Shown here: positions 11,722-35,825 of the stretch, one piece after another
How the letters are laid out: the number at the start of each line of letters is the position of its first letter
How positions within the stretch are numbered: the stretch's first letter is position 1
Assembly: GCA_022072225.1 (NCBI GenBank)
Contig: JAJVIC010000007.1
Coordinates: 366,150-430,149, forward strand
From: Bacteroidia bacterium
GTDB taxonomy: Bacteria > Bacteroidota > Bacteroidia > SXHM01
Length of the DNA stretch: 64,000 nt
Direction of reading: 5' to 3'
Position numbers and translations under genes: made by a program
Notes under the pieces: model-generated
Seen by the model: only the letters and a program-made list of their open reading frames with translations
Told to the model about the DNA's origin: nothing
The model's database searches: none

Positions 11722-12135
11722 ATGTATCCCGCAGAAATTGTAATCCCCATGAAAAAAGACCTGACCAATGCAGGTTTTACCGAACTTACCAATCCCGATG
11801 CAGTAGATGCTGCCATAAAATCAGAAGGCACAACGCTGGTTGTGGTAAACTCTGTTTGCGGTTGCGCGGCAGGCGCTGCCCGCCCGGGAGTTAAACTGGC
11901 TGTGCAGAATGCAGCAAAAAAGCCAACGCGCCTGACCACTGTTTTTGCCGGTTTTGATACCGAAGCAGTAGCCCGCGCCCGTCAGTATTTTTTGCCTTAT
12001 CCTCCTTCATCGCCCTCTGTGGCTTTGTTTAAAGACGGCAAATTGGTTCACTTCATTGAGCGCCACCATATAGAAGGCCGTTCGGCTGAAATGATTGCGC
12101 AAAACCTGCAATCGGCTTTTGACGAATATTGCTAG
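11722..12135 (+). CDS. BrxA/BrxB (YphP/YqiW, DUF1094) family bacilliredoxin
   Basis: 137 aa; thioredoxin-like VVNSVCGCAAG motif containing the family's CGC active site. Confidence 0.65.
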   Translation: MYPAEIVIPMKKDLTNAGFTELTNPDAVDAAIKSEGTTLVVVNSVCGCAAGAARPGVKLAVQNAAKKPTRLTTVFAGFDTEAVARARQYFLPYPPSSPSVALFKDGKLVHFIERHHIEGRSAEMIAQNLQSAFDEYC

Positions 12136-20844: not shown

Positions 20845-21085
20845 CAGGGCCCACGAAATTCCGTCAGAGGTATGGGATAAAATTTCGTGGCGCCATGAAA
20901 AGTTGTACGAGGCCCATGAAATTCCGTCAGAGGCATGGGATAAGATTTCGTGGTGCCATGAAAAGTTGTACGAGGCCCATGAAATTCCGTCAGAGGTATG
21001 GGATAGGATTTCGTGGCGCCATGAAAAGCTGTACGAGGCCCATGAAATTCCGTCAGAGGTATGGGATAAGATTTCGTGGCATCAC
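20845..21085. repeat. 63-bp tandem repeat, about 3.8 copies
   Basis: unit GCCATGAAAAGTTGTACGAGGCCCATGAAATTCCGTCAGAGGTATGGGATAAGATTTCGTGGC repeated with only 1-3 substitutions per copy; two frames are open through the array. Confidence 0.7.
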
Positions 21086-21175
21086 GCTTCCGGTAGCCTC
21101 CCCTAAAATTCTTCTCCTCAACAACCCTAATTTCCTTACATTTGCGCTCCTTTTTAAAAAATCAGCATAAATACT

Positions 21176-23563
21176 ATGAATAAAGTCATCATCTCCCTGC
21201 TTGTAATCCTTCTGGCAGGCATCACTGCTTCAAATGCGCAAAACCTTATTACCATTGACAGTCCGCAATACCAGCAACTGAAAAGCGAAGGCAAAATACC
21301 CATGATTCCCATGGAACAATTTGCCAAATACGTTCCCGAAAAAATATTGAATGCCGAAGACTTCGCACCCCGCGATGTTACCGGAGGCGGTCCCAATGTA
21401 AACTGCGGTTGCATGCAAACCCTTGATGGCAGCTACACCCTTGCCATGGGTCCTAACGATGACGGTTCTACAGGCCTTATCTCTTTGCCTTTTACTTTCT
21501 GCCTCTACGGAACAAGCCAAAACTCGATGTACATCAACAACAATGGAAACATCTCTTTTGGCACCACCTATGGTACCTTTTCTTCCAACCCTTTTCCCGA
21601 TCCCGGTTTTGTAATGGTTGCGCCTTTCTGGGCCGATGTGGATACCCGCGGAACAGGACAGGTATGGTACAAAGTAACTCCTACTTATGCCATTATCCGT
21701 TGGTACAACGTGGGCTACTACAGTTCACAAACCGATAAAATAAATGACTTCCAGCTTATTATTACCGATGGCAGCGACCCCATTATTCCCGGAGGTAACA
21801 ACGTAGCTTTTTGCTATGGCGATATGCAATGGACTACCGGCTCAGCTTCAAGCGGAGTGGGCGGCTTTGGCGGGACTCCCGCTACAGTAGGTGCTAACCT
21901 GGGCGATGGAACATCATTCGTTCAGTTTGGCCGTTTCGACCATGCCGGCAGCGATTACGATGGCCCTTTCAACAATGCCGATGGTATCAGCTGGCTCGAT
22001 AACCAGAGCTTTGTATTCAACGCCTGTGTAAATAATTCAAACATTGCACCCATTGCCGATAATGCCCTCGCCATCTGCGATACCATTCAAATCTGTGTGG
22101 GTGATACCGTTGCTTTTGATGTATCCTTCCTTTCGCCCGAACAAGGACAAATTACCACCACCACTATTGACACTTCAGGTGTTTCGGGTTTTCAGTTAAT
22201 CAGCAACAATTCAGGAAACATATCGTCTGTATCCGCAGTATTTTATGCCACCGAAGACAACATAGGCTTCAATACCTTCACCCTTTCGGCCAGCGACAAC
22301 GGAACTCCGGCACAAACCAACAACTTTGTGGTAAATATCTTTGTCAGCGAAATTGTTGATCCTTCCTTAATCGGTGAGTTTACCTATTGCGCTCCCGGAA
22401 GCGTAAGTATAACGCTCGACTCTGCTTTTGCCTATGAAAGCTGGACCTGGTCAACCGGTGATGTTAGTCCCGACTCGGTTTTAGACCCTTTGCTGGAAGG
22501 CAACTACTCTGTTACCTGCTTTAATGAGTACGGCTGCAACCGTACCCTCGATTTTTCGGTGGTTGAACTCGGTAACCTGCAAATAACCAATACCGTTACC
22601 GACATTCTTTGCAATGGCGCTGCCAACGGAAGCGTGGTTTCTCAGTCTAATGTACCTACTCAACTTTCATTCTTTTGGTCCGATTCACAGGGCGACACCA
22701 TTCATGTTGGTCTGCTTACACAGGGAACCGATCAGGTAAACGGTCTTGAACCCGGCACCTATTATGTTAGCATATACGATACACTGGGTTGTTTCTCTTA
22801 TTTAGACTCAGTAGTAGTTACCGAACCCGAGCCTTATGTAACCGACAACACAGCATCACCCGAAACCTGCGAAGATGCAAACGGAGTTGCTGTAGTTACC
22901 AGTGTTACGGGTAATACTGCGCCTTACAGCTATTTATGGTCGCCTTCAGGAGGAACGGATGCTACGGCAACCGGTCTTGCTGCCGGAACTTATACCGTTA
23001 CCATTACCGATGTTAATGGCTGCGAAAGAGTGGACACTGTTATTGTTTCGGGAATTGCTTCACCTACGGCCAACTTCAGCAGCGACCCGCTGGCTGCTTT
23101 GCTGGATGTTCCGGTTACCTTTGCCGACAGTTCGCTTGCCAATGGCGACAGCATTGTAACCTGGTTCTGGGATTTTGGCGATGGAACTACCGACTCGGTT
23201 CCTAACCCTGTTCATGCGTATGGTGATACCGGTACATACCCCGTAATGCTGGTTGTTACCAACACCGAAGGCTGCACCGACACCATTTATAACGACATTA
23301 TTGTAATTACCGAAATTGTAGTTCCTAATGTATTTACACCTAATGGCGATGGTTACAACGACACCTTTGTTATTCAATACTTAAAAGAACTTTACCCGGG
23401 CAGTAAACTGTATATCTACAACCGCTGGGGCAAACGTGTTTACAAAAGTGATAACTACCAGAACGACTGGGATGGTGAGAAACACAGCGAAGGAACTTAT
23501 TTCTATACGCTCTTTGTCTCTGACGGAACCGAGAAAAACGGAACAATTACTTTGCTGAGATAG
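21176..23563 (+). CDS. cell-surface protein: NIDO domain, SprB repeats, PKD domain and C-terminal CHU_C (type B T9SS / gliding-motility-associated) domain
   Basis: signal peptide ending ASNAQN; NIDO-like NISFGT...[12 protein letters not shown]; SprB-like CNGAANGS and [11 protein letters not shown]...[10 protein letters not shown] repeats; [14 protein letters not shown]; C-terminus [19 protein letters not shown]...[11 protein letters not shown]...WDG matches TIGR04131. Confidence 0.75.
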
Positions 23564-23570
23564 ACGATAT

Positions 23571-23630
23571 GTCACTTCGAGCGTAGTCGAGAAGTAATAA
23601 TCATGGCTTCTCGACTACGCTCGAAATGAC
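23571..23630. terminator. REP-A-derived perfect hairpin (GTCACTTCGAGCGTAGTCGAGAAG-N12-CTTCTCGACTACGCTCGAAATGAC), likely transcription terminator
   Basis: 24-bp perfect inverted repeat immediately after the stop codon of 21176-23563. Confidence 0.5.
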
Positions 23631-23656
23631 AACGTATTCTTAGAGTATCTTCTTCT

Positions 23657-24610
23657 ATGAAAGTAACCGAACATTTCCGCAGGGCAAAGTCAACGCTTTT
23701 CTCTATTGAAATTCTTCCGCCACTGAAAGGCGCAAGCATTCAATCTATTTTTGATGGCATTGACCCGTTGGTGGAATTTAATCCCTCCTTTATTGATGTT
23801 ACTTATCACCGCGAAGAATACATTCAACGCAAAAACCGTAAAGGAGAGTTGAAGCGGGTAAAAATCCGCAAGCGTCCCGGAACGGTTGGTATCAGCGCGG
23901 CTATACAGGCTCGTTATAAGATTGATACAGTTCCCCACATGATTTGCGGAGGTTTCAGTTTAGAAGAAACCGAAAACGCATTATTAGATTTACATTTCTT
24001 AGGAATTAACAATGTGCTCGCTTTGCAAGGCGATATGATTAAAGCAGACGGAAAATTCATTCCGCATCCAGATGGTCATACCTATGCCAATGAATTGGTA
24101 GAGCAGATTGTGGACATGAACAATGGCCGCTACTTAGACCGCGATTTGCAAAACGTTGACCGTACCGACTATTGCATTGGTGTAGCCGGCTATCCCGAAA
24201 AGCATTTTGCCTGCGATGATTTTGATACAGACCTGGCTAACCTTAAACGTAAAGTAGATGCGGGTGCCGAGTATATCGTTACACAGATGTTTTACGACAA
24301 TCAGAAGTTCTTCAACTTTGCGGTGCGTTGCCGCAAAGCTGGTATTAATGTTCCCATTATTCCCGGACTGAAACCCATTGCTACTAAAAAGCAATTAGAA
24401 GTATTGCCCCGCATATTTTATGTAGATATTCCTGAAGACTTGCGCAAAGCCGTTGAAGCCTGCAAAGACGATGCGGCTGTAAAACAAGTAGGAGTGGAGT
24501 GGGCTATTCAGCAAAGCAAAGAGTTGATTGATTTTGGCGCCTTGTGTCTGCATTTCTATACCATGGGCCGCTCGGAACAAACACGTGCCATTGCAAAGGC
24601 TATTTTCTGA
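23657..24610 (+). CDS. metF: methylenetetrahydrofolate reductase [NAD(P)H]
   Basis: 317 aa; N-terminal LFSIEILPP(K/L)...; TIM-barrel MTHFR family layout; ends HFYTMGRSEQT. Confidence 0.88.
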   Translation: MKVTEHFRRAKSTLFSIEILPPLKGASIQSIFDGIDPLVEFNPSFIDVTYHREEYIQRKNRKGELKRVKIRKRPGTVGISAAIQARYKIDTVPHMICGGFSLEETENALLDLHFLGINNVLALQGDMIKADGKFIPHPDGHTYANELVEQIVDMNNGRYLDRDLQNVDRTDYCIGVAGYPEKHFACDDFDTDLANLKRKVDAGAEYIVTQMFYDNQKFFNFAVRCRKAGINVPIIPGLKPIATKKQLEVLPRIFYVDIPEDLRKAVEACKDDAAVKQVGVEWAIQQSKELIDFGALCLHFYTMGRSEQTRAIAKAIF

Positions 24611-24644
24611 TTTTTGTATTTTAGCATAATCTAAAACATAAACC

Positions 24645-25175
24645 ATGCTCAAGAAAATCATTTTCATCCTGCTCGGAATTATTGGAGCCCTTATTCTCGG
24701 TTTTATTGCCATCGGCTTTATTAAACCAACATACAATGGAGGAGTAACCGTTACGGTTAACGCACCCGTTTCAACAACTTTTGCCGTGTTTAACGATACA
24801 GCCAACATGCGCAAGTGGATGGACAATTTTAAGCGTATTGAAAACATTAGTGGAGCAGAAAATGAGGTAGGTTCAAAATGGAAACTGGTTTATGACGAAA
24901 ACGGCAGAGACCTTGTAATGACCGAAACCATTACCGCCTTTGAACAAGACAAACTATTCGCTTTTAACATGGAAGACGAATATTTTAAAATGGACATCGA
25001 AATCCGCTTTGAAGAAAAAGACGGTAAAACCATTATTACCCAAACAGACAAAGGCGAAGGAAAAAACCTTCCCGCACGCAGCATGGTTGCAATTATGGGT
25101 AGCTTAGGACTTATGCAAAAGCAGCAACAGGGAATGTATAACAAACTGAAAGACCTGGTTGAAAAAACCAAGTAA
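24645..25175 (+). CDS. SRPBCC (START/Bet v1-like) family protein with N-terminal TM helix
   Basis: 176 aa; hydrophobic N-terminus; size and secondary-structure-like composition are SRPBCC-like; weak call. Confidence 0.4.
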   Translation: MLKKIIFILLGIIGALILGFIAIGFIKPTYNGGVTVTVNAPVSTTFAVFNDTANMRKWMDNFKRIENISGAENEVGSKWKLVYDENGRDLVMTETITAFEQDKLFAFNMEDEYFKMDIEIRFEEKDGKTIITQTDKGEGKNLPARSMVAIMGSLGLMQKQQQGMYNKLKDLVEKTK

Positions 25176-25187
25176 TAGTTTTCCCTT

Positions 25188-25955
25188 TTGTTGCTCACCG
25201 ATACACACACCCATCTTTATTCCTCCGAGTTTGATGCCGACCGCACGCAGGTTGTTGAGTCGGCTATTGCATCGGGAGTAAAAAAGTTTTTTCTTCCTAA
25301 TATTGATAGCTCTTCGGTTGAAGGAATGATTGCGCTCTGTAATCAGTTTCCCGAAAACTGTTTTCCTATGATGGGATTGCATCCAACATCAGTAAAGGAG
25401 AACTACGAACAGGAACTCGAAAAACTAAAACCTTTTTTCAGCAAAAGAAAAATGTATGCCGTTGGCGAAATAGGAATTGACCTCTATTGGGACAAAACAT
25501 TTTTTGCTCAGCAGCAACAGGCTTTTGAAACACAAATAAAATGGGCCAATGAATTTGGACTGCCCATTGTCATCCACTCGCGCAACTCGTTTAACGAGAT
25601 AGTTGAGGTGTTGCAGAAAACTAAAAACGAAAAACCGCATGGAATTTTTCATTGCTTTTCAGGAAGCAAGGAACAGGCACAGAAAGCAATATCACTTGGC
25701 TTTAAATTAGGAATAGGCGGTGTGCTCACGTATAAAAACTCAGGACTTGGTCAGGCCATTGCCGACATTGATATGAAGCATCTGGTACTTGAAACCGACT
25801 CCCCTTACTTAACTCCGGTTCCGCATCGCGGCAAACGAAATGAAAGCGGATATATTACTTTAGTGGCGCAAAAACTGGCAGAGATAAAAAACATAAGCAT
25901 TGAAGAAGTAGCAGAAATAACTACTGCAAATGCGAAAGAAGTTTTCGGAATTTAA
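25188..25955 (+). CDS. tatD: TatD family metal-dependent hydrolase / DNase
   Basis: LTDTHTHLY N-terminal HxH motif; conserved E/H/D ligands (GEIGIDLYW, IHSR, ETDSPYL). Confidence 0.85.
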   Translation: MLLTDTHTHLYSSEFDADRTQVVESAIASGVKKFFLPNIDSSSVEGMIALCNQFPENCFPMMGLHPTSVKENYEQELEKLKPFFSKRKMYAVGEIGIDLYWDKTFFAQQQQAFETQIKWANEFGLPIVIHSRNSFNEIVEVLQKTKNEKPHGIFHCFSGSKEQAQKAISLGFKLGIGGVLTYKNSGLGQAIADIDMKHLVLETDSPYLTPVPHRGKRNESGYITLVAQKLAEIKNISIEEVAEITTANAKEVFGI

Positions 25956-25964
25956 AAAATAGAT

Positions 25965-26023
25965 AGCCACAGATTCACAGATTAAAACTTTAAACTGCAA
26001 TAAAAAATCTGTGAATCTGTGGC
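25965..26023. repeat. perfect palindrome GCCACAGATTCACAGATT-N22-AATCTGTGAATCTGTGGC upstream of ansA
   Basis: 18-bp perfect arms; same arm sequence as the palindrome at 17071-17136. Confidence 0.45.
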
Positions 26024-26030
26024 AAAACCA

Positions 26031-27068
26031 ATGAAAAAAGAAAAAGCAAAAGTCCTTCTTATCTATACAGGCGGCACCGTAGGCATGGTGCAAGACGAAA
26101 AAACAGGAGTGCTGAAACCCTTCAGCCTTGAAAGCATCATTGATTACATTCCTGAGCTTTCACGTTTCGGGTTTCGTATAGACGGTTACACCTTCGAGCC
26201 TCCCATCGACTCATCTAACATGAAACCTGAAATATGGATTCAACTGGCTGATATTATCGGAAAGAATTACACTAAGTACGATGGCTTTGTGGTGTTGCAC
26301 GGCAGTGATACTATGGCTTATACTGCATCTGCGCTCAGTTTTTTGCTCGAGAACTTAGGCAAGCCCGTAATCCTCACCGGTTCGCAATTGCCCGTAAACG
26401 TGTTGCGTTCCGATGCACGCGAAAACCTGGTTACCTCAATTGAAATAGCAGCCGCTAAAGAAAACGGAAAACCCAAAGTTCCGGAAGTGTGTATTTATTT
26501 TGAATATCGCCTGTATCGCGGCAACCGAACCTATAAACACAATGCCGAAAATTTTGAGGCGTTCAATTCTTCCAACTATCCTGAACTGGCAACCGCAGGT
26601 GTGCATATTAAATACAACGAACAGTTTATTGCCAAACCCTCTTCAAAAAAAATAATCAGTCACCGCTCGCTTGATACCAACATTGCCGTTGTAAAATTAT
26701 TTCCCGGAATAAATCCTTTGGTCATGGAAAGCATTTTCAACACCAAAGGATTAAAAGCCGTAGTGCTTGAAACCTACGGAACAGGCAACGCGCCCACTGC
26801 TAAGGCATTTTTGCAGCCGATAGCAACGGCCATAAAAAAAGGAATAATTGTACTCAACGTAACGCAGTGTCGTGCAGGTGCAGTTCAGCAAGGGCGCTAC
26901 GAAACCAGCACTGAACTGAGAAAAATAGGAGTAATTGGCGGTAACGATATGACCACCGAAACAGCACTTACCAAATTAATGTTTTTGTTCGGTGAAAATT
27001 ATCCGCTTGCTGCAATCAAGAAACTGCTGCAACAATCCTTGCGTGGCGAATTGACAGCGCAGGGCTGA
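26031..27068 (+). CDS. ansA: type I L-asparaginase
   Basis: VLLIYTGGTVGM threonine-containing active-site motif; about 345 aa; the ORF-track start at 26019 is a GTG within the palindrome, so the ATG at 26031 is preferred. Confidence 0.85.
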   Translation: MKKEKAKVLLIYTGGTVGMVQDEKTGVLKPFSLESIIDYIPELSRFGFRIDGYTFEPPIDSSNMKPEIWIQLADIIGKNYTKYDGFVVLHGSDTMAYTASALSFLLENLGKPVILTGSQLPVNVLRSDARENLVTSIEIAAAKENGKPKVPEVCIYFEYRLYRGNRTYKHNAENFEAFNSSNYPELATAGVHIKYNEQFIAKPSSKKIISHRSLDTNIAVVKLFPGINPLVMESIFNTKGLKAVVLETYGTGNAPTAKAFLQPIATAIKKGIIVLNVTQCRAGAVQQGRYETSTELRKIGVIGGNDMTTETALTKLMFLFGENYPLAAIKKLLQQSLRGELTAQG

Positions 27069-27099
27069 AAAAAATCATTACTTTCGCTGCCCCTTTAAC

Positions 27100-27188
27100 C
27101 GGAGAGGTGTCCGAGTGGTCGAAGGAGCACGCCTGGAAAGTGTGTAAACCCCAAAAGGGTTTCGAGGGTTCGAATCCCTCTCTCTCCG
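27100..27188 (+). tRNA. tRNA-Ser (anticodon GGA)
   Basis: hand-folded cloverleaf: acceptor GGAGAGG/TCTCTCC (one G-U); anticodon stem CACGC/GTGTG; loop CTGGAAA; long variable arm TAAACCCCAAAAGGGTTTC; T-arm GAGGGTTCGAATCCCTC; discriminator G. Confidence 0.85.
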
Positions 27189-27189
27189 C

Positions 27190-28986
27190 TTAATTAATGT
27201 ATTCTTTCTTTACTTCCAGCGTCAGGCGGTTGTCGCTCAGCAGTCGCTCACAAAGTGCTGCTGATTTCGGAAGTTCATACAGGAAGAAATAATTCATCGC
27301 AGCCAGTTTGCCTTCATAGAAATTTTTCTCATCACCGTTTGCAGTACCAACTGCTTTTTGTGCTACAATTCCCATTTTAAGCCATTGCCATGCAATAGAT
27401 ACAATTCCTGCGTTTTCAAGAAACAGCGTTGCATCAGCCAGAAAAACTTCCGGAGCTTGTGATTGCGCCAGGCCCATCAGCTTCATCGTTACTTCAGTCA
27501 GTTTTTGCATTGCCTTGGCAAGATTTTCAGCATGTGTTTTCAGACTTTCAATTCCTGCTGCTTCTGCAATGGTTTGATTGATTTCGGCAGCATACAACAT
27601 CAAACCCTGTCCCATTTTCATCGGAATTTTTCTTCCCAATAAATCCATTGCCTGAATTCCTGTTGTGCCTTCGTAAATAGGATTGATTCGCGTATCGCGG
27701 AAATATTGCTCCAGTGGAAAATCATCGCAGTAGCCCGCACCTCCAAGCGTTTGAACCGCTGCGCTGGTGCTGAGCACGCTCATTTCTGACGGATATGCTT
27801 TTGCAATCGGTGTAAGTAAATTCAACAGCAGATTGTATTTTTCTTTTTCCGCACCCTCACTTATTTTTTCCATATCTGAATAATAAGCGCACTGTGTTAC
27901 AAATGAAAGGCATCCTTCGGTAATTGCTTTCTGGAAAAGCAACATGCGTTTCACATCAGCATACTCAATAATCAGTGATTGCGGAACAAGCGGGTCTTTA
28001 TTGGAAACCGGGCGACCTTGCGGACGCTCATTACAATATTCCAGTGAAGCGTGGTAAGCCGCGCTGCAAAGCGCGGTTGACATCATTCCTACGCTGATAC
28101 GCGCACCGTTCATCATCTTGAACATATACGATAGGCCTTTGTGTGGTTCGCCTACCAGCCAACCTTTGCAGTTGTCTGCTTCGCCCATGCTGAGGTGTAA
28201 AATCGGACAACCTTTCATTCCCATTTTTCCGAAAACTCCGGCAGAAATAACATCGTTGTTTACCAGCTTTCCATTTTCAGGTCTGTATTTAGGAACCACA
28301 AAAAGCGAAATACCTTTTACGCCCACCGGACCACCTTTTATTTTTGCCAACATCAGATGCACCACATTTTCAGCACTGTGATAATCACCGGCTGAAATAA
28401 AAATCTTTTGTCCTTTAATAGTGTAAGTGCCGTCAGCATTGGGTTCAGCAGAAGTGGTAATATCACCTAAAGAACTTCCTGCATCAGGTTCAGTCAAGGC
28501 CATAGTGCCTTGCCATTTTCCTGAATCCATGTGGGGCACATACGTTTCATTCAACTCTTTACTTCCGAAAGTGCGAATCAAATCCGAAGAGCCGGTTGTT
28601 AGTCCAAAGTACGAAGCAGCAGAAGTGTTGGCAGCATGAAAAATAAAATTTGCAGCAGCATATAATGTTCCGGGCATTTGTTGTCCGCCTTCTTCTGCTG
28701 AAGCCGGAGCAGCAATCCAACCGCCTTCGCCCATGGCATCCATAATTTTGCGAACATCGTCATGCACGGTAACCACACCGTTTTCAAGGTGAGGTTTTTT
28801 CTTATCCATTTCGGTGTAAATCGGAAAAAACAAATCGTCACCCAATTTCTTGGCGGTATCAATTGTCATGTCAATTACCTCTTTCGTGTAATCCGCATAG
28901 TAAGGATTTTTTGAAAAATTTTCTGCTGCGAAAACTTCGTGAAGCACAAAGCGCAGATTGCGCATGTTTACATATTCTTTTGCCAT
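27190..28986 (-). CDS. acyl-CoA dehydrogenase family protein (long-form, with C-terminal extension)
   Basis: 598 aa; ACAD N-terminal, middle and C-terminal domain motifs (GGxGY..E catalytic region YFRDTRINPIYEGT). Confidence 0.8.
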   Translation of the reverse strand: MAKEYVNMRNLRFVLHEVFAAENFSKNPYYADYTKEVIDMTIDTAKKLGDDLFFPIYTEMDKKKPHLENGVVTVHDDVRKIMDAMGEGGWIAAPASAEEGGQQMPGTLYAAANFIFHAANTSAASYFGLTTGSSDLIRTFGSKELNETYVPHMDSGKWQGTMALTEPDAGSSLGDITTSAEPNADGTYTIKGQKIFISAGDYHSAENVVHLMLAKIKGGPVGVKGISLFVVPKYRPENGKLVNNDVISAGVFGKMGMKGCPILHLSMGEADNCKGWLVGEPHKGLSYMFKMMNGARISVGMMSTALCSAAYHASLEYCNERPQGRPVSNKDPLVPQSLIIEYADVKRMLLFQKAITEGCLSFVTQCAYYSDMEKISEGAEKEKYNLLLNLLTPIAKAYPSEMSVLSTSAAVQTLGGAGYCDDFPLEQYFRDTRINPIYEGTTGIQAMDLLGRKIPMKMGQGLMLYAAEINQTIAEAAGIESLKTHAENLAKAMQKLTEVTMKLMGLAQSQAPEVFLADATLFLENAGIVSIAWQWLKMGIVAQKAVGTANGDEKNFYEGKLAAMNYFFLYELPKSAALCERLLSDNRLTLEVKKEYIN

Positions 28987-29043
28987 AAGTGTTTAAATGA
29001 ATTTCTTAAGTGCCGCAAAAATAGAAAACTAAATAAGTGAAAA

Positions 29044-29541
29044 TTATTTTGCTTTAAAATGAATTTCATAAGTCTTATTATTATAATGCATGATTCTTAT
29101 CTTAAGACTTTGACTTGTTAATTCCTCAAGTGACCACCTACTTCCACCTCTGAACACTGGCCCCAAAGTTTCATTGTTTGAATTTAAAGAAAGAGTAAAA
29201 GAAAAATTTTCCTTATTAAGTAATTCCCATCTTCCCCCTAATGTATTAGGCTCAATGCTTCCAGAATTGCAATCATACCCTATTAAGTAATGATTGCCGG
29301 AGATAATATCAAACTTATAAGTAGCACAATAAGTTGGGTGCTGAGTAAATAGTGCGAGCGAATCAATACCATCAATCTTAAGCGAGTCAATTTCCCATTC
29401 TCTCATCAGTAAATCACAATATCCTGAATCTTCACAAAAACTTGGCTTTTCGCAACTGCTTTGCAGAATGCAAAAGATTAAAATAAAAAAGCCGCTCAGA
29501 ACTGGCAACGAAAACCTATATTCCTTTGAAATGAATTTCAT
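29044..29541 (-). CDS. hypothetical lipoprotein (paralog of 29516-29956)
   Basis: lipobox LQSSC; shares CxxxxREWEID-DG-DSL, HxxYC-Y-F and K-YEIHFK blocks with the upstream paralog. Confidence 0.45.
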   Translation of the reverse strand: MKFISKEYRFSLPVLSGFFILIFCILQSSCEKPSFCEDSGYCDLLMREWEIDSLKIDGIDSLALFTQHPTYCATYKFDIISGNHYLIGYDCNSGSIEPNTLGGRWELLNKENFSFTLSLNSNNETLGPVFRGGSRWSLEELTSQSLKIRIMHYNNKTYEIHFKAK

Positions 29542-29956
29542 AGACTTTATAATTAAAGTATTGTGTTCTCAGCCACATTTCATCATCTGCCAGTCTTATG
29601 ATTTGCCAAGTTGTGGCACCAACCGGACCGTAAGGTTTTCCTAAAGAAAAAGAGAGAGTAGTGTTACCATTTCCCAATTGCCAATTTCCACCATCAGATA
29701 AGATTGAGTCGCATGGGAAGCCTACTAAATAGTATTCACTACCATTATCCGCAAATTCGTAAACAGAGCAGTAGTTATGCTGGCTTTTAAAAACCTCTAA
29801 GGAATCATCTCCATCTACAGTAAGGAATTCAACTTCCCATTTCCCGCATACACGGTCGCATGCAGAACGAAAGCTAATGCCAGGACCTTCTTCATATTTA
29901 CATCCTGTAAATACAATAAGGCTAAACACAAAGAATAAAATACTTTTGCTTTTCAT
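29516..29956 (-). CDS. hypothetical lipoprotein (paralog)
   Basis: lipobox FTGC; tandem duplicate of 29044-29541. Confidence 0.45.
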   Translation of the reverse strand: MKSKSILFFVFSLIVFTGCKYEEGPGISFRSACDRVCGKWEVEFLTVDGDDSLEVFKSQHNYCSVYEFADNGSEYYLVGFPCDSILSDGGNWQLGNGNTTLSFSLGKPYGPVGATTWQIIRLADDEMWLRTQYFNYKVYEIHFKGI

Positions 29957-30002
29957 CTGAATGTAATTTTTCAGAAAAGTATAAAAAATTCAGGATTAAA
30001 AC

Positions 30003-30875
30003 ATGGAAACTATTTTATCAAACAATTTTCTTCGCATAAAAGTAAAAGCAAAAGGTGCTGAACTCAGCAGTATCTTTGATTTACGTGATAACACCGAACA
30101 TCTCTGGCAAGCCGACCCAACGTTCTGGAACTGGCATGCTCCTGTTCTCTTTCCGAAAATAGGCGAGTCGGTAAACGAACAGATTTCTTTTTCAGGAAAG
30201 AAATACAAAATGCCCAAACATGGTTTGGCAAGGCATCTTGATTTTAGTGCAGATAAAATATCAGAGGAGGAATTTGTCTTCACACTTCGCAGCAATGAAG
30301 AAACGCTCAAACAATATCCGTTTCGTTTTTGTTTTCAGATTACGTATGTCTTGGACGAAAATAAACTGCGGAATATTTATACCGTGATTAATGAAGATGA
30401 CAAGCCAATGCCCTTCACCGTTGGCGGACATCCTGCTTTTGCTGTTCCCTTTTTTGCCAACGAAAAGTTGGACGATTATTTTCTTGAATTTGAAAAAAAC
30501 GAAACCATTTCGCGCCATCTGATTGATGCGAATGGCTTGTTCAATGGAGTTACAGAACGTGTGCTGAATAATGAAAAAGCAATTCCGCTTACCAACGAAT
30601 TATTCAACCGCGATGCGTTGATTTTTAAAAATCATATTTCACGCAAGATTTCTATTTGCAGTAAGAACCACAATAAAAAGCTCACTGTTGAGTTTGCAGA
30701 TTTCCCTTACCTCGGCATTTGGGCAAAGCCTGGTGCGCCTTATGTATGCATTGAACCCTGGATTGGCTGTGCAGAAAATGCAGGTAAAGAAATTGACTTC
30801 ACAGAAAAAGAACATTGCAAAACTTTGCAGCCCGGAGAAAAATTCTCTTGTGAGTTTGTTGTTGTGATAGAATGA
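30003..30875 (+). CDS. aldose 1-epimerase (galactose mutarotase-like) family protein
   Basis: 290 aa; beta-sandwich mutarotase-like motifs (HGLARHLDF, VGGHPAF). Confidence 0.55.
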   Translation: METILSNNFLRIKVKAKGAELSSIFDLRDNTEHLWQADPTFWNWHAPVLFPKIGESVNEQISFSGKKYKMPKHGLARHLDFSADKISEEEFVFTLRSNEETLKQYPFRFCFQITYVLDENKLRNIYTVINEDDKPMPFTVGGHPAFAVPFFANEKLDDYFLEFEKNETISRHLIDANGLFNGVTERVLNNEKAIPLTNELFNRDALIFKNHISRKISICSKNHNKKLTVEFADFPYLGIWAKPGAPYVCIEPWIGCAENAGKEIDFTEKEHCKTLQPGEKFSCEFVVVIE

Positions 30876-30880
30876 TTTTT

Positions 30881-30917
30881 CTCTCCCCCTTTGGGGGAGT
30901 TGGAGGGGGCTTTTTTA
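30881..30917. terminator. GC-rich hairpin and T-run (CTCTCCCCCTTTGGGGGAGTTGGAGGGGGCTTTTTT)
   Basis: between the epimerase stop and the mfd start. Confidence 0.4.
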
Positions 30918-30935
30918 TCTTTACCCCGTTTTCTG

Positions 30936-33900
30936 ATGGATTTAGAGGCTGTAAAGAATAGTTTTTCGCAACACCCCCGCATCGCTGAACTGGTTAACTC
31001 GCTTTCGGCAGGGAATACTACGCGCATTCACATAAAAAATCTTGCCGGTTCATCTTCTGCTTTTGCTGCGGCAACTGTTGTTTTGCAAATCCCGAAAACA
31101 CATGTTTTTATTTTACCGGGCAAAGAAGAAGCTGCCTATTTTCTGAATGATATTGAAAACTTTCTCCCCTCTCCTGAGGGAGAGGGCTCGGGGGTGAGGG
31201 CGCTGTTTTTCCCCATGTCATACCGCAGACCCTATAGTGAAGAGGAACAGACCGACAATAGTAATGTGGTGGAACGTGCAGAAACACTGAACAAGCTTAA
31301 CCAGAATTTTGCACGTGCGGTTGTCACGTATCCCGAAGCACTTTCCGAAAAAGTAGTTACACGAAAAGTGTTGGAGAAAAATACCCTGCTGTTGAAAACA
31401 GGCGACACCCACGGAATTGATTTCATCACCGATATATTATTTGAATATCATTTCGAGCGTGTGGATTATGTTTTTCAGCCGGGACAATTTGCTGTGCGCG
31501 GTGGTATTGTTGATATGTTTTCGTTTTCAGGCGAGTATCCCTTGCGCGTTGAGTTTTTCGGAAATACAATTGAAAGCATCCGCAGCTTCGATCCCTCCAC
31601 TCAATTGTCGGTTGCTACTCATGCAAAGGCAACTATTTTGCCTAATGTGCAACAAAGTCTGCTGCACGAAAGCCGCGTTTCCTTTTTAGAGTTTATTCCG
31701 GTTGAAAGTGTAGTGTGGATTACCGATGTAAGAAGTGTTACTTCCGTTTTGGATAAAGAATTAGAATCGGCTAAAGAGGCCTACGCAGCCCTTTCCCTCG
31801 GAGAGGGCCCGGGGGTGAGGCTTTTGCCGCCCGAAGAAAAATATATCAGCGGAAATTATTTTATTGAGAAGTTTAATCAACACAGTGTGGTAGAATTCGG
31901 GCAGGCCGAATATTTTGATGATGTAAAAACGATTGAGTTCAATACTTCGCCACAACCGGCATTCAATAAGAATTTTGAAATGCTGGGCGAGCATTTGCGA
32001 AAGAACACTGCTGCCGGTTTTCAAAATCTTTTAGCGGCAGAAAATCCGAAGCAGGCAGAACGCCTGTATTCCATTTTTGAAGACATGCCAGTGAAAGCAG
32101 GTGAAAAGAAACCTGAATTTACTCCGTTAGTGGTTTCTGTTTCCGAAGGATTTACCGACCACGATTTAAAGATTTGTTTTTACACCGACCACCAGATTTT
32201 TGAACGTTATCACCGTTTCCGGTTGCGCACCGGATTTAAGAAAACAAAGGAAGCGCTTACGTTGAAAGAATTGCACGGTTTAAATCCGGGCGACTATGTT
32301 ACGCACATCGACCACGGCATCGGCAAGTTCGCAGGGCTTGAAAAAATTGATGTGAATGGAAAGATGCAGGAGGCTGTGCGATTGGTTTACCGCGACAATG
32401 ATATTCTGTATGTCAGCATTCATTCGCTTCACCGCATTGCAAAATATTCCGGCAAAGACGGAGCAGAACCCAAAATAAATAAGCTGGGCTCTGCTGCGTG
32501 GCAGGCATTGAAGCTGAAAACAAAATCGAAGGTTAAAGACATCGCCAAAGATTTAATCAAGTTGTATGCACAGCGCAGAGCAAAAAAAGGTTTTGAGTTT
32601 TCGCAGGACAATTATTTGCAGACCGAACTGGAGGCAAGCTTTATTTATGAAGATACGCCCGACCAGATTAAAGCAACTGCCGATGTAAAAAAAGACATGG
32701 AACAGAATTTTCCGATGGACCGCTTAATCTGCGGTGATGTTGGTTTCGGGAAAACAGAGATTGCAATTCGTGCTGCATTCAAAGCAGTCTGCGACAGCAA
32801 GCAGGTGGCAGTGCTTGTTCCAACAACTATTCTTGCCTTGCAGCATTACAAAACTTTTTCTGAGCGTTTGAAAAATTTCCCTTGTCGTGTCGATTACATC
32901 AACCGTTTTATAACTGCGGGACAACAAAAGGAAACACTCAAAAAATTAGAGAAAGGTGAGATTGATATCATCATCGGAACGCATCGCATTGTAAGCAAAG
33001 ATGTAAAGTTTAAAGACCTTGGTTTGTTGATTGTGGATGAGGAACAAAAGTTTGGCGTGGGTGTCAAAGAGAAATTGAAAGCCTTTCGTGTGAATGTGGA
33101 TACGCTTACGCTCACGGCAACTCCAATCCCGCGTACCTTGCAGTTTTCATTGATGGGCGCAAGAGATTTGAGCATTATCAATACACCTCCACCAAACCGT
33201 TTTCCGGTAATTACAGAAGTGCACACGTTCAACGAAGCTACAATTCGCGATGCTATCCGCTATGAGATTGACAGAGGCGGACAAGTCTTTTTTGTAAATA
33301 ACAGAGTCGAAAATATCCGTGAAGTAGCGGGAATGATTTCGCGCCTGTGTCCCGATGTGCGTGTTGGTATCGGGCACGGACAGTTGGAAGGACATCAGCT
33401 GGAAGATGTGATGATGAAATTTATTGAAGGCGAAACGGATGTGTTGATTGCTACTACCATTATTGAATCCGGATTGGATATTTCCAATGCGAACACCATC
33501 ATTATTAACAACGCACAGTATTTCGGGTTGAGTGATTTGCACCAGATGCGGGGCAGGGTAGGGCGTTCCAACAAAAAAGCATTCTGTTATTTATTGGCAC
33601 CACCCAGCGAAATGCTGAGCACCGAAGCAAAGAAACGTTTGCGTGCTATTGAAGAATTTTCGGAACTCGGCAGCGGTTTCAATATTGCCATGCGTGATTT
33701 GGATATTCGCGGAGCAGGAAATTTATTGGGTGCAGAACAAAGCGGATTTATTTCCGACATCGGATTTGAGATGTATCATAAAATTCTGGACGAGGCGTTA
33801 ACAGAATTAAGAATTGAAAATGAAGAATTAAGAATTGAAAATGAAAATAACATCAGACAAAAACATTCTGCATCCTTAATTCCTAATTCTGCATTTGTAA

Positions 33901-34355
33901 AAGATTGCGTGATTGACACCGACATGGCAATTCTTATTCCTGATGACTATGTGAATAATATTACCGACCGGCTCGGGCTTTACCGTGAACTGGATGACAC
34001 GGAAAATGAAAATGAATTAATCGTTTTTGAGAAAAATTTAATTGACCGTTTTGGTCCTTTACCAAAAGAAGCCACTGAATTATTAAACACCATTCGCTTG
34101 CGCTGGATTGCTAAAGAAATTGGTTTTGAGCGGTTGATTTTGAAAAATAAAAAGTTGACAGGCTATTTTATTTCTTCGCCAAACTCACTCTATTTCCAAA
34201 GTGATACTTTTGGTAAAGTGCTTAATTATGTGCAAACGCATGGCAAAGATTGCCGCATGACTCAGAAAGGGGATAAGCTGACGTTGAGTTTTGAGAATGT
34301 GGTTACGATTGGGGATGCAATCAAGTGGCTCAAAGCAATTCTTGTTGTTTCTTAA
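30936..34355 (+). CDS. mfd: transcription-repair coupling factor Mfd
   Basis: about 1,140 aa; UvrB-homology N-terminus; RNAP-interaction domain; superfamily 2 helicase motifs (CGDVGFGKTEIAIRAAF, LIVDEEQKFGV, TATPIPRTL, QMRGRVGRS); TRG/C-terminal domain. Confidence 0.92.
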   Translation: MDLEAVKNSFSQHPRIAELVNSLSAGNTTRIHIKNLAGSSSAFAAATVVLQIPKTHVFILPGKEEAAYFLNDIENFLPSPEGEGSGVRALFFPMSYRRPYSEEEQTDNSNVVERAETLNKLNQNFARAVVTYPEALSEKVVTRKVLEKNTLLLKTGDTHGIDFITDILFEYHFERVDYVFQPGQFAVRGGIVDMFSFSGEYPLRVEFFGNTIESIRSFDPSTQLSVATHAKATILPNVQQSLLHESRVSFLEFIPVESVVWITDVRSVTSVLDKELESAKEAYAALSLGEGPGVRLLPPEEKYISGNYFIEKFNQHSVVEFGQAEYFDDVKTIEFNTSPQPAFNKNFEMLGEHLRKNTAAGFQNLLAAENPKQAERLYSIFEDMPVKAGEKKPEFTPLVVSVSEGFTDHDLKICFYTDHQIFERYHRFRLRTGFKKTKEALTLKELHGLNPGDYVTHIDHGIGKFAGLEKIDVNGKMQEAVRLVYRDNDILYVSIHSLHRIAKYSGKDGAEPKINKLGSAAWQALKLKTKSKVKDIAKDLIKLYAQRRAKKGFEFSQDNYLQTELEASFIYEDTPDQIKATADVKKDMEQNFPMDRLICGDVGFGKTEIAIRAAFKAVCDSKQVAVLVPTTILALQHYKTFSERLKNFPCRVDYINRFITAGQQKETLKKLEKGEIDIIIGTHRIVSKDVKFKDLGLLIVDEEQKFGVGVKEKLKAFRVNVDTLTLTATPIPRTLQFSLMGARDLSIINTPPPNRFPVITEVHTFNEATIRDAIRYEIDRGGQVFFVNNRVENIREVAGMISRLCPDVRVGIGHGQLEGHQLEDVMMKFIEGETDVLIATTIIESGLDISNANTIIINNAQYFGLSDLHQMRGRVGRSNKKAFCYLLAPPSEMLSTEAKKRLRAIEEFSELGSGFNIAMRDLDIRGAGNLLGAEQSGFISDIGFEMYHKILDEALTELRIENEELRIENENNIRQKHSASLIPNSAFVKDCVIDTDMAILIPDDYVNNITDRLGLYRELDDTENENELIVFEKNLIDRFGPLPKEATELLNTIRLRWIAKEIGFERLILKNKKLTGYFISSPNSLYFQSDTFGKVLNYVQTHGKDCRMTQKGDKLTLSFENVVTIGDAIKWLKAILVVS
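31161..31202. repeat. GC-rich mini-element inserted in-frame in mfd (TCCCCTCTCCTGAGGGAGAGGGCTCGGGGGTGAGGGCG, encoding LPSPEGEGSGVRA)
   Basis: second near-identical copy at 31788-31825 (CCCTCGGAGAGGGCCCGGGGGTGAGGCT, encoding LSLGEGPGVRL); both are far more GC-rich than the surrounding mfd sequence. Confidence 0.45.
31788..31825. repeat. second copy of the GC-rich mini-element within mfd
   Basis: 19 of 20 nt identical to the core GAGAGGGCYCGGGGGTGAGG of the first copy. Confidence 0.45.
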
Positions 34356-34436: not shown

Positions 34437-35237
34437 ATGAAAGACTTTTTAGAAGAAAAGAATAATTTCCCGTCTGTTCGAGTTCAAAAATTTATATTGG
34501 CTGAGATAAATAAAGAATACAATCAATCACTTAATGAATCACAAGCAATAATAGAAGTTAAAAATAGGTCAGTTAATATTTTAAAAACAATAAACCTATT
34601 TGTAAAAAAACCAAACCAAAAATCAATTGGAAAGAAAGGGAAAAGCGAAGATTATTTTGAAAATTATTTAAACAAATGGTTTACAAATAAAATTTATAAA
34701 GATTATTCATTCCTACCCAATCCTGATTTTGAACCATTTCAACCTGATTTTATTTATCAAGGGGATAACGATTTACATATAGATATTGAAATCGATGAGC
34801 CGTATGATTTGGAAACAAAGATTCCTCTTCATTACATAGATGATACAGGTAAGCACATCGATGCATTGAGAGATAGTTTCTTTGCAGAACTAAAGTGCTG
34901 GGCAGTTATTAGGTTTTCTGAAGAACAGGTTGTAAGGTATCCAAACGAGTGCTGTAAGGTAATCGCAAATCTTATTGATTTCTTAACAGGTGAAAATGTA
35001 TACAAAATGAAACTTGAAAAAATTGGAGAACTAAAAAAAACAAAAAAATGGACTATTGATGATGCAACAAAGATGTCAGAAATGAATTATCGTAACAGCT
35101 ATTTAAGCCTAATTACTGAAACGGAAGTTGTTAAAAATACATGGAATGAAAAAATTAGGATGGATAATATTCCTTTTAAATTAAGAAAATCCAATCCATT
35201 TAGTTCTTCAAAAGAAGATGTTGACTTACCATTTTAA
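34437..35237 (+). CDS. hypothetical protein with central DUF559/Vsr-like PD-(D/E)xK endonuclease-fold domain
   Basis: 266 aa, low GC; PDFIYQGDNDLHIDIEIDEPYD ... HIDALRDSFFAELKCWAVIRFSEEQVV mirrors the DUF559/Vsr pattern PDF..IEvDG..H...D..RD..L...GW.VLRF...EV; N- and C-terminal extensions have no recognisable match. Confidence 0.5.
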   Translation: MKDFLEEKNNFPSVRVQKFILAEINKEYNQSLNESQAIIEVKNRSVNILKTINLFVKKPNQKSIGKKGKSEDYFENYLNKWFTNKIYKDYSFLPNPDFEPFQPDFIYQGDNDLHIDIEIDEPYDLETKIPLHYIDDTGKHIDALRDSFFAELKCWAVIRFSEEQVVRYPNECCKVIANLIDFLTGENVYKMKLEKIGELKKTKKWTIDDATKMSEMNYRNSYLSLITETEVVKNTWNEKIRMDNIPFKLRKSNPFSSSKEDVDLPF

Positions 35238-35261
35238 ACGCAACAAAAGTTAATATTATTT

Positions 35262-35825
35262 ATGACGATTTATATGGATGCAATTAAGGAACTTCAAAAC
35301 CTCTCAAAAGATGTTTACTCCATAAACCATCTTTACTGGTGGACACTCAAATACGAATACCTTTATAAGCGTGCTAAAGAAACTAAGAATTTAGGTTCTT
35401 GTTATGGTAGTTTACCTTGTGCTTGCACTTCAGATAATCCCGAAAGTATATTCATCAGTTTTTACGAAGGCTTATTTCAGATGACAGAATTTCACAAGCA
35501 TGAAAATTATTTTCAAGAAGAATTGAAGAATTATAATTCAATAGCTGGCGATGAAGAAAAATTAAAAGAATGGGTACTGAAAAATGAAAAACTGGGAACA
35601 GAAGATTTATTCCTTTTCCTTATAAACCATTTAGATTATGATGAAAATTCTTACCACCCAATTGTTGGAATTCATGAAGATAATCTGCCTAACATATTTG
35701 TAAATAGAAACGATTTTAAAAATACAATCGAAGCCTTAGAGATATTCGCAGACCTCTATTGGGATAAAAAGATTTTACCTGAAAATCTAAGGAGGCTAAT
35801 GGAAAATTCCGATTCTAAGAATTAA
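35262..35825 (+). CDS. hypothetical protein
   Basis: 187 aa, low GC; immediately downstream of and co-oriented with 34437; contains a CYGSLPCAC cysteine cluster; no recognisable domain. Confidence 0.45.
   Translation: MTIYMDAIKELQNLSKDVYSINHLYWWTLKYEYLYKRAKETKNLGSCYGSLPCACTSDNPESIFISFYEGLFQMTEFHKHENYFQEELKNYNSIAGDEEKLKEWVLKNEKLGTEDLFLFLINHLDYDENSYHPIVGIHEDNLPNIFVNRNDFKNTIEALEIFADLYWDKKILPENLRRLMENSDSKN

Follow-up and report, generated by a model that had tools for sequence, protein, structure and literature searches.

Copies of a BoxC/PIT/TMECO-type repeat inside a Bacteroidota mfd gene, gained by replacement of loop-coding tracts

How do two nearly identical, GC-rich segments come to be read in-frame inside mfd, the gene for the transcription-repair coupling factor, in a Bacteroidia bacterium? 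The gene (30936..34355, + strand, from the list of open reading frames (ORFs); 1139 aa) lies on contig JAJVIC010000007.1, in a stretch of 64,000 nucleotides that we analysed as a whole and call the window. A preliminary description, made from the letters alone, had reported the two segments as mini-elements tolerated inside a protein loop. Our results make it probable that they are copies of a widespread, structure-prone dispersed repeat, which the protein carries as neutral passengers in two of its loops.

The segments share a 20-nt core, GAGAGGGCYCGGGGGTGAGG, which occurs in the window at two sites only, both on the + strand: 31180-31199 (GAGAGGGCTCGGGGGTGAGG) and 31801-31820 (GAGAGGGCCCGGGGGTGAGG), with 19 of 20 bases identical. 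No further site was found in the 64 kb even when three mismatches were allowed, and the number expected by chance was 0 (100 shuffles). The GC content is 0.77 locally and about 0.42 on average in the window, and both segments belong to the few stretches with a GC content of at least 0.73. Both lie within the mfd ORF, keep its reading frame and are translated. The near-identical cores, the unbroken frame and the contrast in composition had all been correctly described.

Copy A (31158..31202, + strand) is a 45-nt tract, AAC TTT CTC CCC TCT CCT GAG GGA GAG GGC TCG GGG GTG AGG GCG, which encodes N75-A89 and is read as NFLPSPEGEGSGVRA; L77-A89 are LPSPEGEGSGVRA. The full unit (31161-31200) has the form TTTCTC-CCCTCTCC-TGAG-GGAGAGGG-CTCGG-GGGTGAGG-G, in which CCCTCTCC pairs with GGAGAGGG and the loops are 4 and 5 nt long. 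Copy B (31788..31823, + strand; GCC CTT TCC CTC GGA GAG GGC CCG GGG GTG AGG CTT) is read as (A)LSLGEGPGVRL, of which SLGEGPGVRL is S287-L296. Its motif (31789-31820) is CCCTTTCC-CTC-GGAGAGGG-CCCGG-GGGTGAGG, and its hairpin, CCCTTTCC/GGAGAGGG, contains one mismatch. Each copy does hold a hairpin. Compared with copy A, copy B lacks the CTC prefix and the trailing G. The exact 20-mer was found at 61 loci of a species-representative genome collection; the unit is bounded by CTC ahead of the C-arm and by G behind the third arm. Copy A is thus complete, and copy B is trimmed at each end. The unit measures about 34-42 nt. Its first arm is a run of pyrimidines, (CTC)CCCTCTCC; after a short loop comes the Watson-Crick partner, GGAGAGGG, and beyond a second loop the mirrored third arm, GGGTGAGG.

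A related motif lies upstream of mfd (30878..30917, + strand; arms at 30883-30909), beginning 3 nt past the stop codon of an aldose 1-epimerase family gene (30003..30875, + strand; PF01263 on the identical product). It reads CTCCCCC-TTT-GGGGGAG-TTG-GAGGGGG, then CTTTTTT. Its sequence is unlike that of copies A and B; the architecture is what they share. The GC hairpin that had been placed upstream of the gene is real (30881-30909, then a T-run). A terminator pattern scan matched 30885-30909, followed by CTTTTTTATC, that is, a stem-loop with a T-run downstream of a gene, and to judge from these letters the motif looks like an intrinsic terminator.

We scanned the window with a custom triplex rule, under which a pyrimidine arm is followed by a purine arm that pairs with it in Watson-Crick fashion and by a third arm that mirrors the purines, setting G against G and A or T against A. 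Stems had to reach 7-8, each interaction could contain one mismatch at most, and loops could not exceed 6. Exactly three sites in the 64 kb came out, each of them on the + strand: the upstream motif, copy A and copy B. Shuffled sequence gave 4 sites over 30 shuffles, or about 0.13 per window. The predicted triads are 8 perfect ones in copy A, 8 with one Watson-Crick mismatch in copy B and 7 perfect ones in the upstream motif, and all three sites fall within the ITxF criteria for a class II intrastrand triplex (stem 6-15, at most one mismatch, loops 1-6). The most GC-rich 45 nt of the window lie elsewhere (11852-11896; GC 0.87; GCGGTTGCGCGGCAGGCGCTGCCCGCCCGGGAG) and have no sequence relation to the triplex motif.

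Comparison with close relatives (four to five, at 78-91% nucleotide identity) shows the empty sites directly. Against the window, in which the upstream motif is present and sites A and B are both filled, relatives L067 (87% identity) and L070 (78%) lack the upstream motif and are empty at both sites. Relatives L068 and L069 (81%) also lack the upstream motif and are empty at site A, but carry a copy of their own at site B. In the right-hand part of L066 (about 90% identity), site B is empty, site A is uncertain and the upstream motif is not assessable. L067 shares the gene upstream with the window but not the spacer, which is a different one, of 38 nt (60 nt in the window), without the upstream motif.

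The empty site A reads GAA GTG ATG CTG GGT AAA GAC CAG GTT TTG TTT TTC and encodes VMLGKDQV or a near variant in L067-L070. Here, 24 nt between GAA and a TTG/CTG codon became 45 nt in the window (net +21 nt). The empty site B reads AAT CTG AAA ACA GAA CTG AAT TAT TTG CCG (NL-KTELNY-LPP in L066, L067 and L070), and the 18 nt for KTELNY became 30 nt (net +12 nt). Filled and empty alleles showed no target-site duplication at site A or site B, and apart from the internal hairpin no terminal inverted repeats were present. Both mfd events are replacements of a tract of 6-8 native codons, not clean insertions.

More distant orthologues agree with this. The alignment that had been proposed as a check showed that 26 Mfd orthologues (43-53% identity) lack the insert residues and that both sites fall in length-variable loops, and none of the 120 Mfd orthologues listed carried the peptide signatures of any frame. 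In the AlphaFold model (mean pLDDT 85.5), insert A is predicted coil between a helix (63-74) and a strand (88-91), with block-mean pLDDT of 84 (71-80) and 69 (81-90). Insert B is predicted coil (288-298) between two helices (265-287 and 299-302), with block means of 73 (281-290) and 68 (291-300). Mapping onto a structure, also suggested beforehand, thus places both peptides in coil of reduced confidence. The copies were gained recently and in-frame in two surface loops; the idea of an element tolerated in a protein loop stands as to the site, as the orthologue loops and the predicted coil attest, and falls as to clean insertion (24 to 45 nt and 18 to 30 nt by replacement).

The copy at site B of L068 and L069 is perfect: TCC CCC CTC TCC TTT GGA GAG GGG CAG GGG GTG AGG CTA, read as SPLSFGEGQGVRL. 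It replaces six codons identical in position to those replaced at site B of the window, with different loops and junctions and with flanks that are 30-40% divergent. Lineages flanking L068/L069 have an empty site with KTELNY, and distant orthologues have a similar sequence, so the simplest reading is that site B was hit by two independent events.

The sequence from L066 (Logan SRR13214015_412501) is 100% identical to the window over 21039-31246 (10.2 kb); from 31247 onward, up to the end of mfd, the two differ by about 10%, and the genes downstream are different. Identity thus breaks at most 47 nt past copy A. We considered a recombination hotspot at copy A and set it aside: an assembler could join two strains at the first shared k-mers past a strain-specific tract, so the same break would be expected. 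The break reflects either recombination or chimeric assembly, and we do not count it as evidence.

What kind of repeat is this? The preliminary description had not recognised the element. A full-text search, however, found the core printed in two papers (PMC4666352 and PMC5100583), and by their sequence the mfd segments belong to the known BoxC/PIT/TMECO kind of triplex motif. BoxC, PIT and TMECO are one and the same GC-rich intrastrand triplex motif of E. coli (Holder 2015, PMC4666352), with earlier work by Bachellier and by Hoyne and Maher cited there. The published pattern is CCCTCNCCC N3-6 GGGNGAGGG N3 GGGNGAGGG. E. coli MG1655 holds 23 copies, every one of them intergenic, and 262 proteobacterial genomes together hold 3610; the motif's loci are unusually variable among strains, and the single strand gives a stable triplex in vitro (PMC4666352). 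The arms of the window copies are those of TMECO type B (CCCTCTCCCTGTGGGAGAGGGCCGGGGTGAGGGC; Table 1 of PMC4666352), and a consensus 40-mer built from the arms matched 4456 of 5426 complete E. coli genomes at about 95% identity.

The likeness to BoxC/PIT/TMECO covers the arms CCCTCTCC, GGAGAGGG and GGGTGAGG, their order and the logic of a class II purine triplex. It extends to a GC-rich unit of about 34-36 nt, local clustering, presence/absence variation in close relatives and a lack of transposon features. The exact window 20-mer occurs, moreover, in a chromosome of Enterobacter hormaechei (L021). In contrast, the second loop is 5 nt in the window (CYCGG) and 3 in E. coli (CCG or TTA), and the host is a 42%-GC member of the Bacteroidota, whereas the known hosts are proteobacterial. 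Copies A and B are intragenic and translated, unlike the 23 MG1655 copies, and the upstream motif alone is intergenic. Finally, the window copies are direct, whereas E. coli has inverted pairs of type A and type B. The 5-nt second loop, the Bacteroidota host, the in-frame coding location, the gain by tract replacement, the recurrence in one loop and the arrays found elsewhere (below) together make up an undescribed setting for the motif; our literature search found no later paper on TMECO in coding regions and nothing relevant on the peptide signatures.

The E. coli motif sequences have also been described as a switch between G-quadruplex, hairpin and duplex, HPG1/HPG2, which flank ORFs with none inside one, and for which a regulatory role was proposed (Kaplan 2016, PMC5100583). 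Copy A resembles these. By eye, it contains four G-tracts of at least three, GGG-AGA-GGG-CTC-GGGGG-TGA-GGG, with short loops and a competing hairpin. Copy B (GG...GG at its ends) and the upstream motif differ in that they lack four G3 tracts.

The exact 20-mer reaches far beyond this host. Its 61 loci fall in Planctomycetota, Chloroflexota, Bacteroidota (Draconibacterium, Flavobacterium, Hymenobacter, Cyclobacteriaceae and Prevotellaceae), Proteobacteria (including E. hormaechei), Acidobacteriota and Gemmatimonadota. The complete three-arm architecture is present in 40 of the 61, and a few high-GC matches may be due to chance. The core can be read through without a stop in five frames; the sixth, ERARG*, contains TGA. 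The same 20-mer is read in other frames, on either strand, in unrelated genes. An in-frame motif splits the Methyltransf_3 domain of a Draconibacterium O-methyltransferase, lies between the Radical_SAM_N2 and Radical_SAM domains of a Pirellulales protein, and precedes the methylase domain of a Blastopirellula DNA methylase. Another occupies the linker between GH43_C and the C-terminal tail of a Prevotellaceae glycosidase, and further cases come from long ORFs in a Flavobacterium and in other hosts. Composite variants of the unit occur in L040, L044 and L061, where a further hairpin, about 24 nt in length, lies within the first loop (for example, CTCCCCTCGCC-gggcaccgaccgaaggttggtcgg-GAGAGGG).

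The O-methyltransferase shows the motif as an array. We surveyed L002 and proteins P0121-P0240, which are orthologues of 60-100% identity. The loop after GTFTGYSAIAM-GLGM is 10 aa long when empty and 19, 30, 41 or 51-65 aa long otherwise, lengths that appear to correspond to roughly 0 to 5 element-derived units (for example, PSPPAPLPGERGG). The array keeps the reading frame, and the repeat in it runs antisense to the gene. Its second unit in L002 is an incomplete tandem duplicate from which the C-arm is missing, the outcome expected of slippage between near-identical G arms.

The reading we favour can be set out as follows. When single-stranded, the unit could fold as a hairpin, as a purine-motif triplex or, in the case of copy A, as a G-quadruplex, going by its letters. 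Its near-repeat arms would probably promote slippage and local rearrangement of the DNA. One copy overwrote an 8-codon loop in D1a of Mfd and another a 6-codon loop in D1b, and a third motif of the same architecture occupies the spacer upstream of mfd. As tracts were replaced without target-site duplication, templated repair or a process like gene conversion would be favoured over transposition. The frames observed give short Gly/Pro/Ser-rich peptides, and an in-frame copy in a surface loop, merely lengthening that loop, would escape purifying selection. The insert peptides are most likely passengers without a function of their own.

Several points weigh against this account. The neutrality of the peptides is something we infer. 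All three sites visible in the window, two copies and one related motif, fall inside 940 bp, and the source genome is not among the 61 loci, so a dispersed family in that genome cannot be demonstrated from the window. RNA and DNA minimum free energies, computed with ViennaRNA for Watson-Crick pairs only, were no better than those of composition-matched shuffles (z −0.03 to −1.4); folding energy thus gives no independent thermodynamic signal, and what sets the sites apart is the triplex rule together with the identity of their sequence. In its strict published form, the TMECO pattern has 0 matches in the window, because the second loop is 5 nt (CYCGG), not 3, and the first arm agrees at 8/9. 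No stable TMECO triplex was seen in double-stranded DNA or in vivo (PMC4666352), and since the E. coli copies are always intergenic, coding copies stand outside the described behaviour. Moreover, two lineages each acquired a copy in place of one and the same six-codon tract at site B; function or targeting, more than mere tolerance, could lie behind this.

Targeting is the substance of a tentative alternative, in which the motif is an active, ultra-small mobile element with site preference, a unit of 34-45 nt copied in trans by sequence-specific, cross-phylum machinery. A preference for a target sequence or structure would explain the double hit on six mfd codons as well as the 940-bp cluster. 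Gain/loss polymorphism in close relatives fits such an element, as do the independent copies at one set of codons in the window and in L068/L069, whose loops, junctions and flanks differ. Near-identical 20-mers across very distant phyla and the clustering in the window and in L002, L007, L022 and L027 point the same way. Both replaced tracts start at CTG and stop before TTG, in two cases only. The missing target-site duplication and the lack of terminal inverted repeats beyond the internal hairpin speak against it, as does the report that TMECO is not associated with transposons, phages or plasmids (PMC4666352). Nor was a candidate enzyme found. In L027 (~1700-2200; Phycisphaeraceae), a DUF559-like endonuclease domain interrupts a DNA-methylase-like ORF in-frame and is flanked on each side by motif copies, in opposite orientations. 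We rejected it as a general mobiliser, because tblastn against the 61 loci and the window found it in L027 only (1 of 61). The two ORFs past mfd, for their part, have no significant Pfam match. Recurrence in one loop would also follow from selection if survivors are found only in tolerant loops.

Function, the other possibility raised by site B, could act through nucleic acid or through protein. That G-rich structures on the sense strand or mRNA, with the terminator-like upstream motif, modulate mfd transcription or translation seems to us quite unlikely; such control might even be coupled to the activity of Mfd itself on stalled RNA polymerase. All three motifs do lie on the sense strand at the 5′ end of mfd, the upstream one fits a terminator pattern, copy A is from its letters a canonical four-tract G-quadruplex motif, and a regulatory switch has been proposed for the E. 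coli motifs (PMC5100583). But close relatives manage without all three, elsewhere the motif lies in both orientations in unrelated genes, and, as summarised in PMC4666352, E. coli PIT elements have no promoter or terminator activity and leave RNA polymerase unaffected, and RNA does not form purine-motif triplexes. An adaptive role of the Gly/Pro-rich peptides themselves, selected for altering Mfd, for example through the interdomain flexibility of its autoinhibiting UvrB-homology module, is very unlikely. Copies A and B and the L068 copy share one frame (GEGxGVR), site B is filled in two lineages, and the inserts lie in D1a and D1b. These two domains take part in the autoinhibited architecture of Mfd. 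Yet conservation is at the level of DNA, not peptide, the 20-mer being read in other frames or on the other strand elsewhere, and the inserts are polymorphic in near relatives, absent from the 120 listed orthologues and predicted as disordered coil. Finally, GC-rich repeats on metagenome-derived contigs invite suspicion of an assembly or sequencing artefact or of chance GC-rich similarity, as does the switch of L066 from 100% to about 90% identity right past copy A, possibly a chimeric join. This explanation is extremely improbable. The identical 1139-aa Mfd with both copies recurs in assemblies made independently, namely Logan SRR10609163, those of three more samples and a contig of 0.2-1 Mb. 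Furthermore, 0 core matches are expected by chance, and the site-B copy of L068 recurs in L069, which is from another JGI sample.

Other known systems fit less well than BoxC/PIT/TMECO. Rickettsia palindromic elements (RPE), repeat DNA found in-frame in unrelated protein genes and translated as fold-compatible surface segments (PMC10969869), had been offered as a parallel. The analogy of in-frame, translated inserts in unrelated genes holds, but membership does not. RPE measure about 150 bp, encode a conserved peptide and are confined to Rickettsia and relatives, whereas the window repeat, with no sequence similarity to them, is 34-45 nt long, crosses phyla and is translated in several frames and from either strand; it lacks the conserved in-frame peptide of an element of about 100-150 bp. 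Nor does a unit of 34-45 nt without terminal inverted repeats or target-site duplication qualify as a miniature inverted-repeat transposable element. The sole notable Rfam match was whalefall-1 (RF01762), at 31165-31201, where copy A gave the best score in the region, 20.9 bits against a gathering threshold of 37 (E = 0.0018-0.014). The whalefall-1 consensus, CUCUCC-UUGG-GGAGAG...AGGGUGAGGAC, has three corresponding arms, but a second hairpin of 24 nt stands in place of the 5 nt of copy A. With this difference and a sub-threshold score, copy A is not a member; the whalefall-1 'RNA motif' may instead be a relative of this DNA repeat. Elhai and colleagues reportedly described, in 2008, small dispersed repeats of heterocystous cyanobacteria, tens of nucleotides long, hairpin-containing, and both genic and intergenic. 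These are alike in being very small hairpin repeats within and between genes with no known mobilising enzyme, and unlike in sequence and host; we know of no triplex-type third arm described for them.

BoxC/PIT/TMECO motifs have been known since the 1990s, and we know of no described mechanism for their spread. Neither PMC4666352 nor PMC5100583 reports an established function for them. The form with a 5-nt second loop is present in Bacteroidota and many other phyla, and it is able to sit in conserved genes and be translated. Because it lies in coding sequence, overwrites short loop-coding tracts, hits one loop repeatedly and expands into in-frame arrays (as in the O-methyltransferase), the motif is a source of variation in protein loops. 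The pairs of filled and empty alleles are direct material on how the repeat moves. For annotation, GEGxGVR, GRGxGGEG, LTPGPSP and SPPxPLP in bacterial proteins are best read as footprints of the repeat, not as functional motifs. It is conceivable, at odds we would put well short of even, that BoxC/TMECO-type motifs are active ultra-small mobile DNA of many phyla, spreading through tract replacement by templated repair with a site preference and acting as a general generator of loop insertions and arrays. If so, the mfd alleles would be a natural system for working out how these repeats spread, and the replacement of short tracts would leave no transposase signature.

The host protein is a typical Mfd. 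Pfam matches on the identical protein are UvrB_inter, CarD_TRCF_RID, ResIII, DEAD, Helicase_C and TRCF, and the product aligns to solved Mfd and UvrB structures. The UvrA-binding D2 fragment 4dfc aligns to residues 150-228, so both inserts lie outside the UvrA-binding domain. From the offset in the 2EYQ alignment we take insert A to lie in D1a and insert B in D1b. The gene had been called essential; mfd is conserved but is not known to be essential in model bacteria.

A third variable linker is apparent in other Bacteroidota Mfd proteins (P0009, P0010 and P0013), which have LPFGGVGAS- or LPFTEGWGGA-like peptides. The corresponding DNA of P0010 (L062:4150-4250; CTTCCTTTTGGTGGAGTTGGCGCA) was tried as a motif copy. 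It bears a faint likeness to the upstream motif and failed the triplex rule, which leaves a weak lead: it may be a decayed old copy. Near the end of the gene, an AT-rich 21-nt tandem duplication (33804-33848; GAATTAAGAATTGAAAATGAA twice) encodes ELRIENE-ELRIENE in the C-terminal linker of Mfd and occurs also in L066, with one substitution. Directly downstream of mfd, two ORFs of low GC content (34437-35825; 266 and 187 aa; about 33%) look nuclease-like by eye, an assignment we dropped given no significant Pfam match. L066 has other genes (HTH_26 and others) in this position, which marks it as a variable islet. Farther on, a single ORF of 7596 codons (36836-59626, − strand) presumably encodes a giant surface protein.

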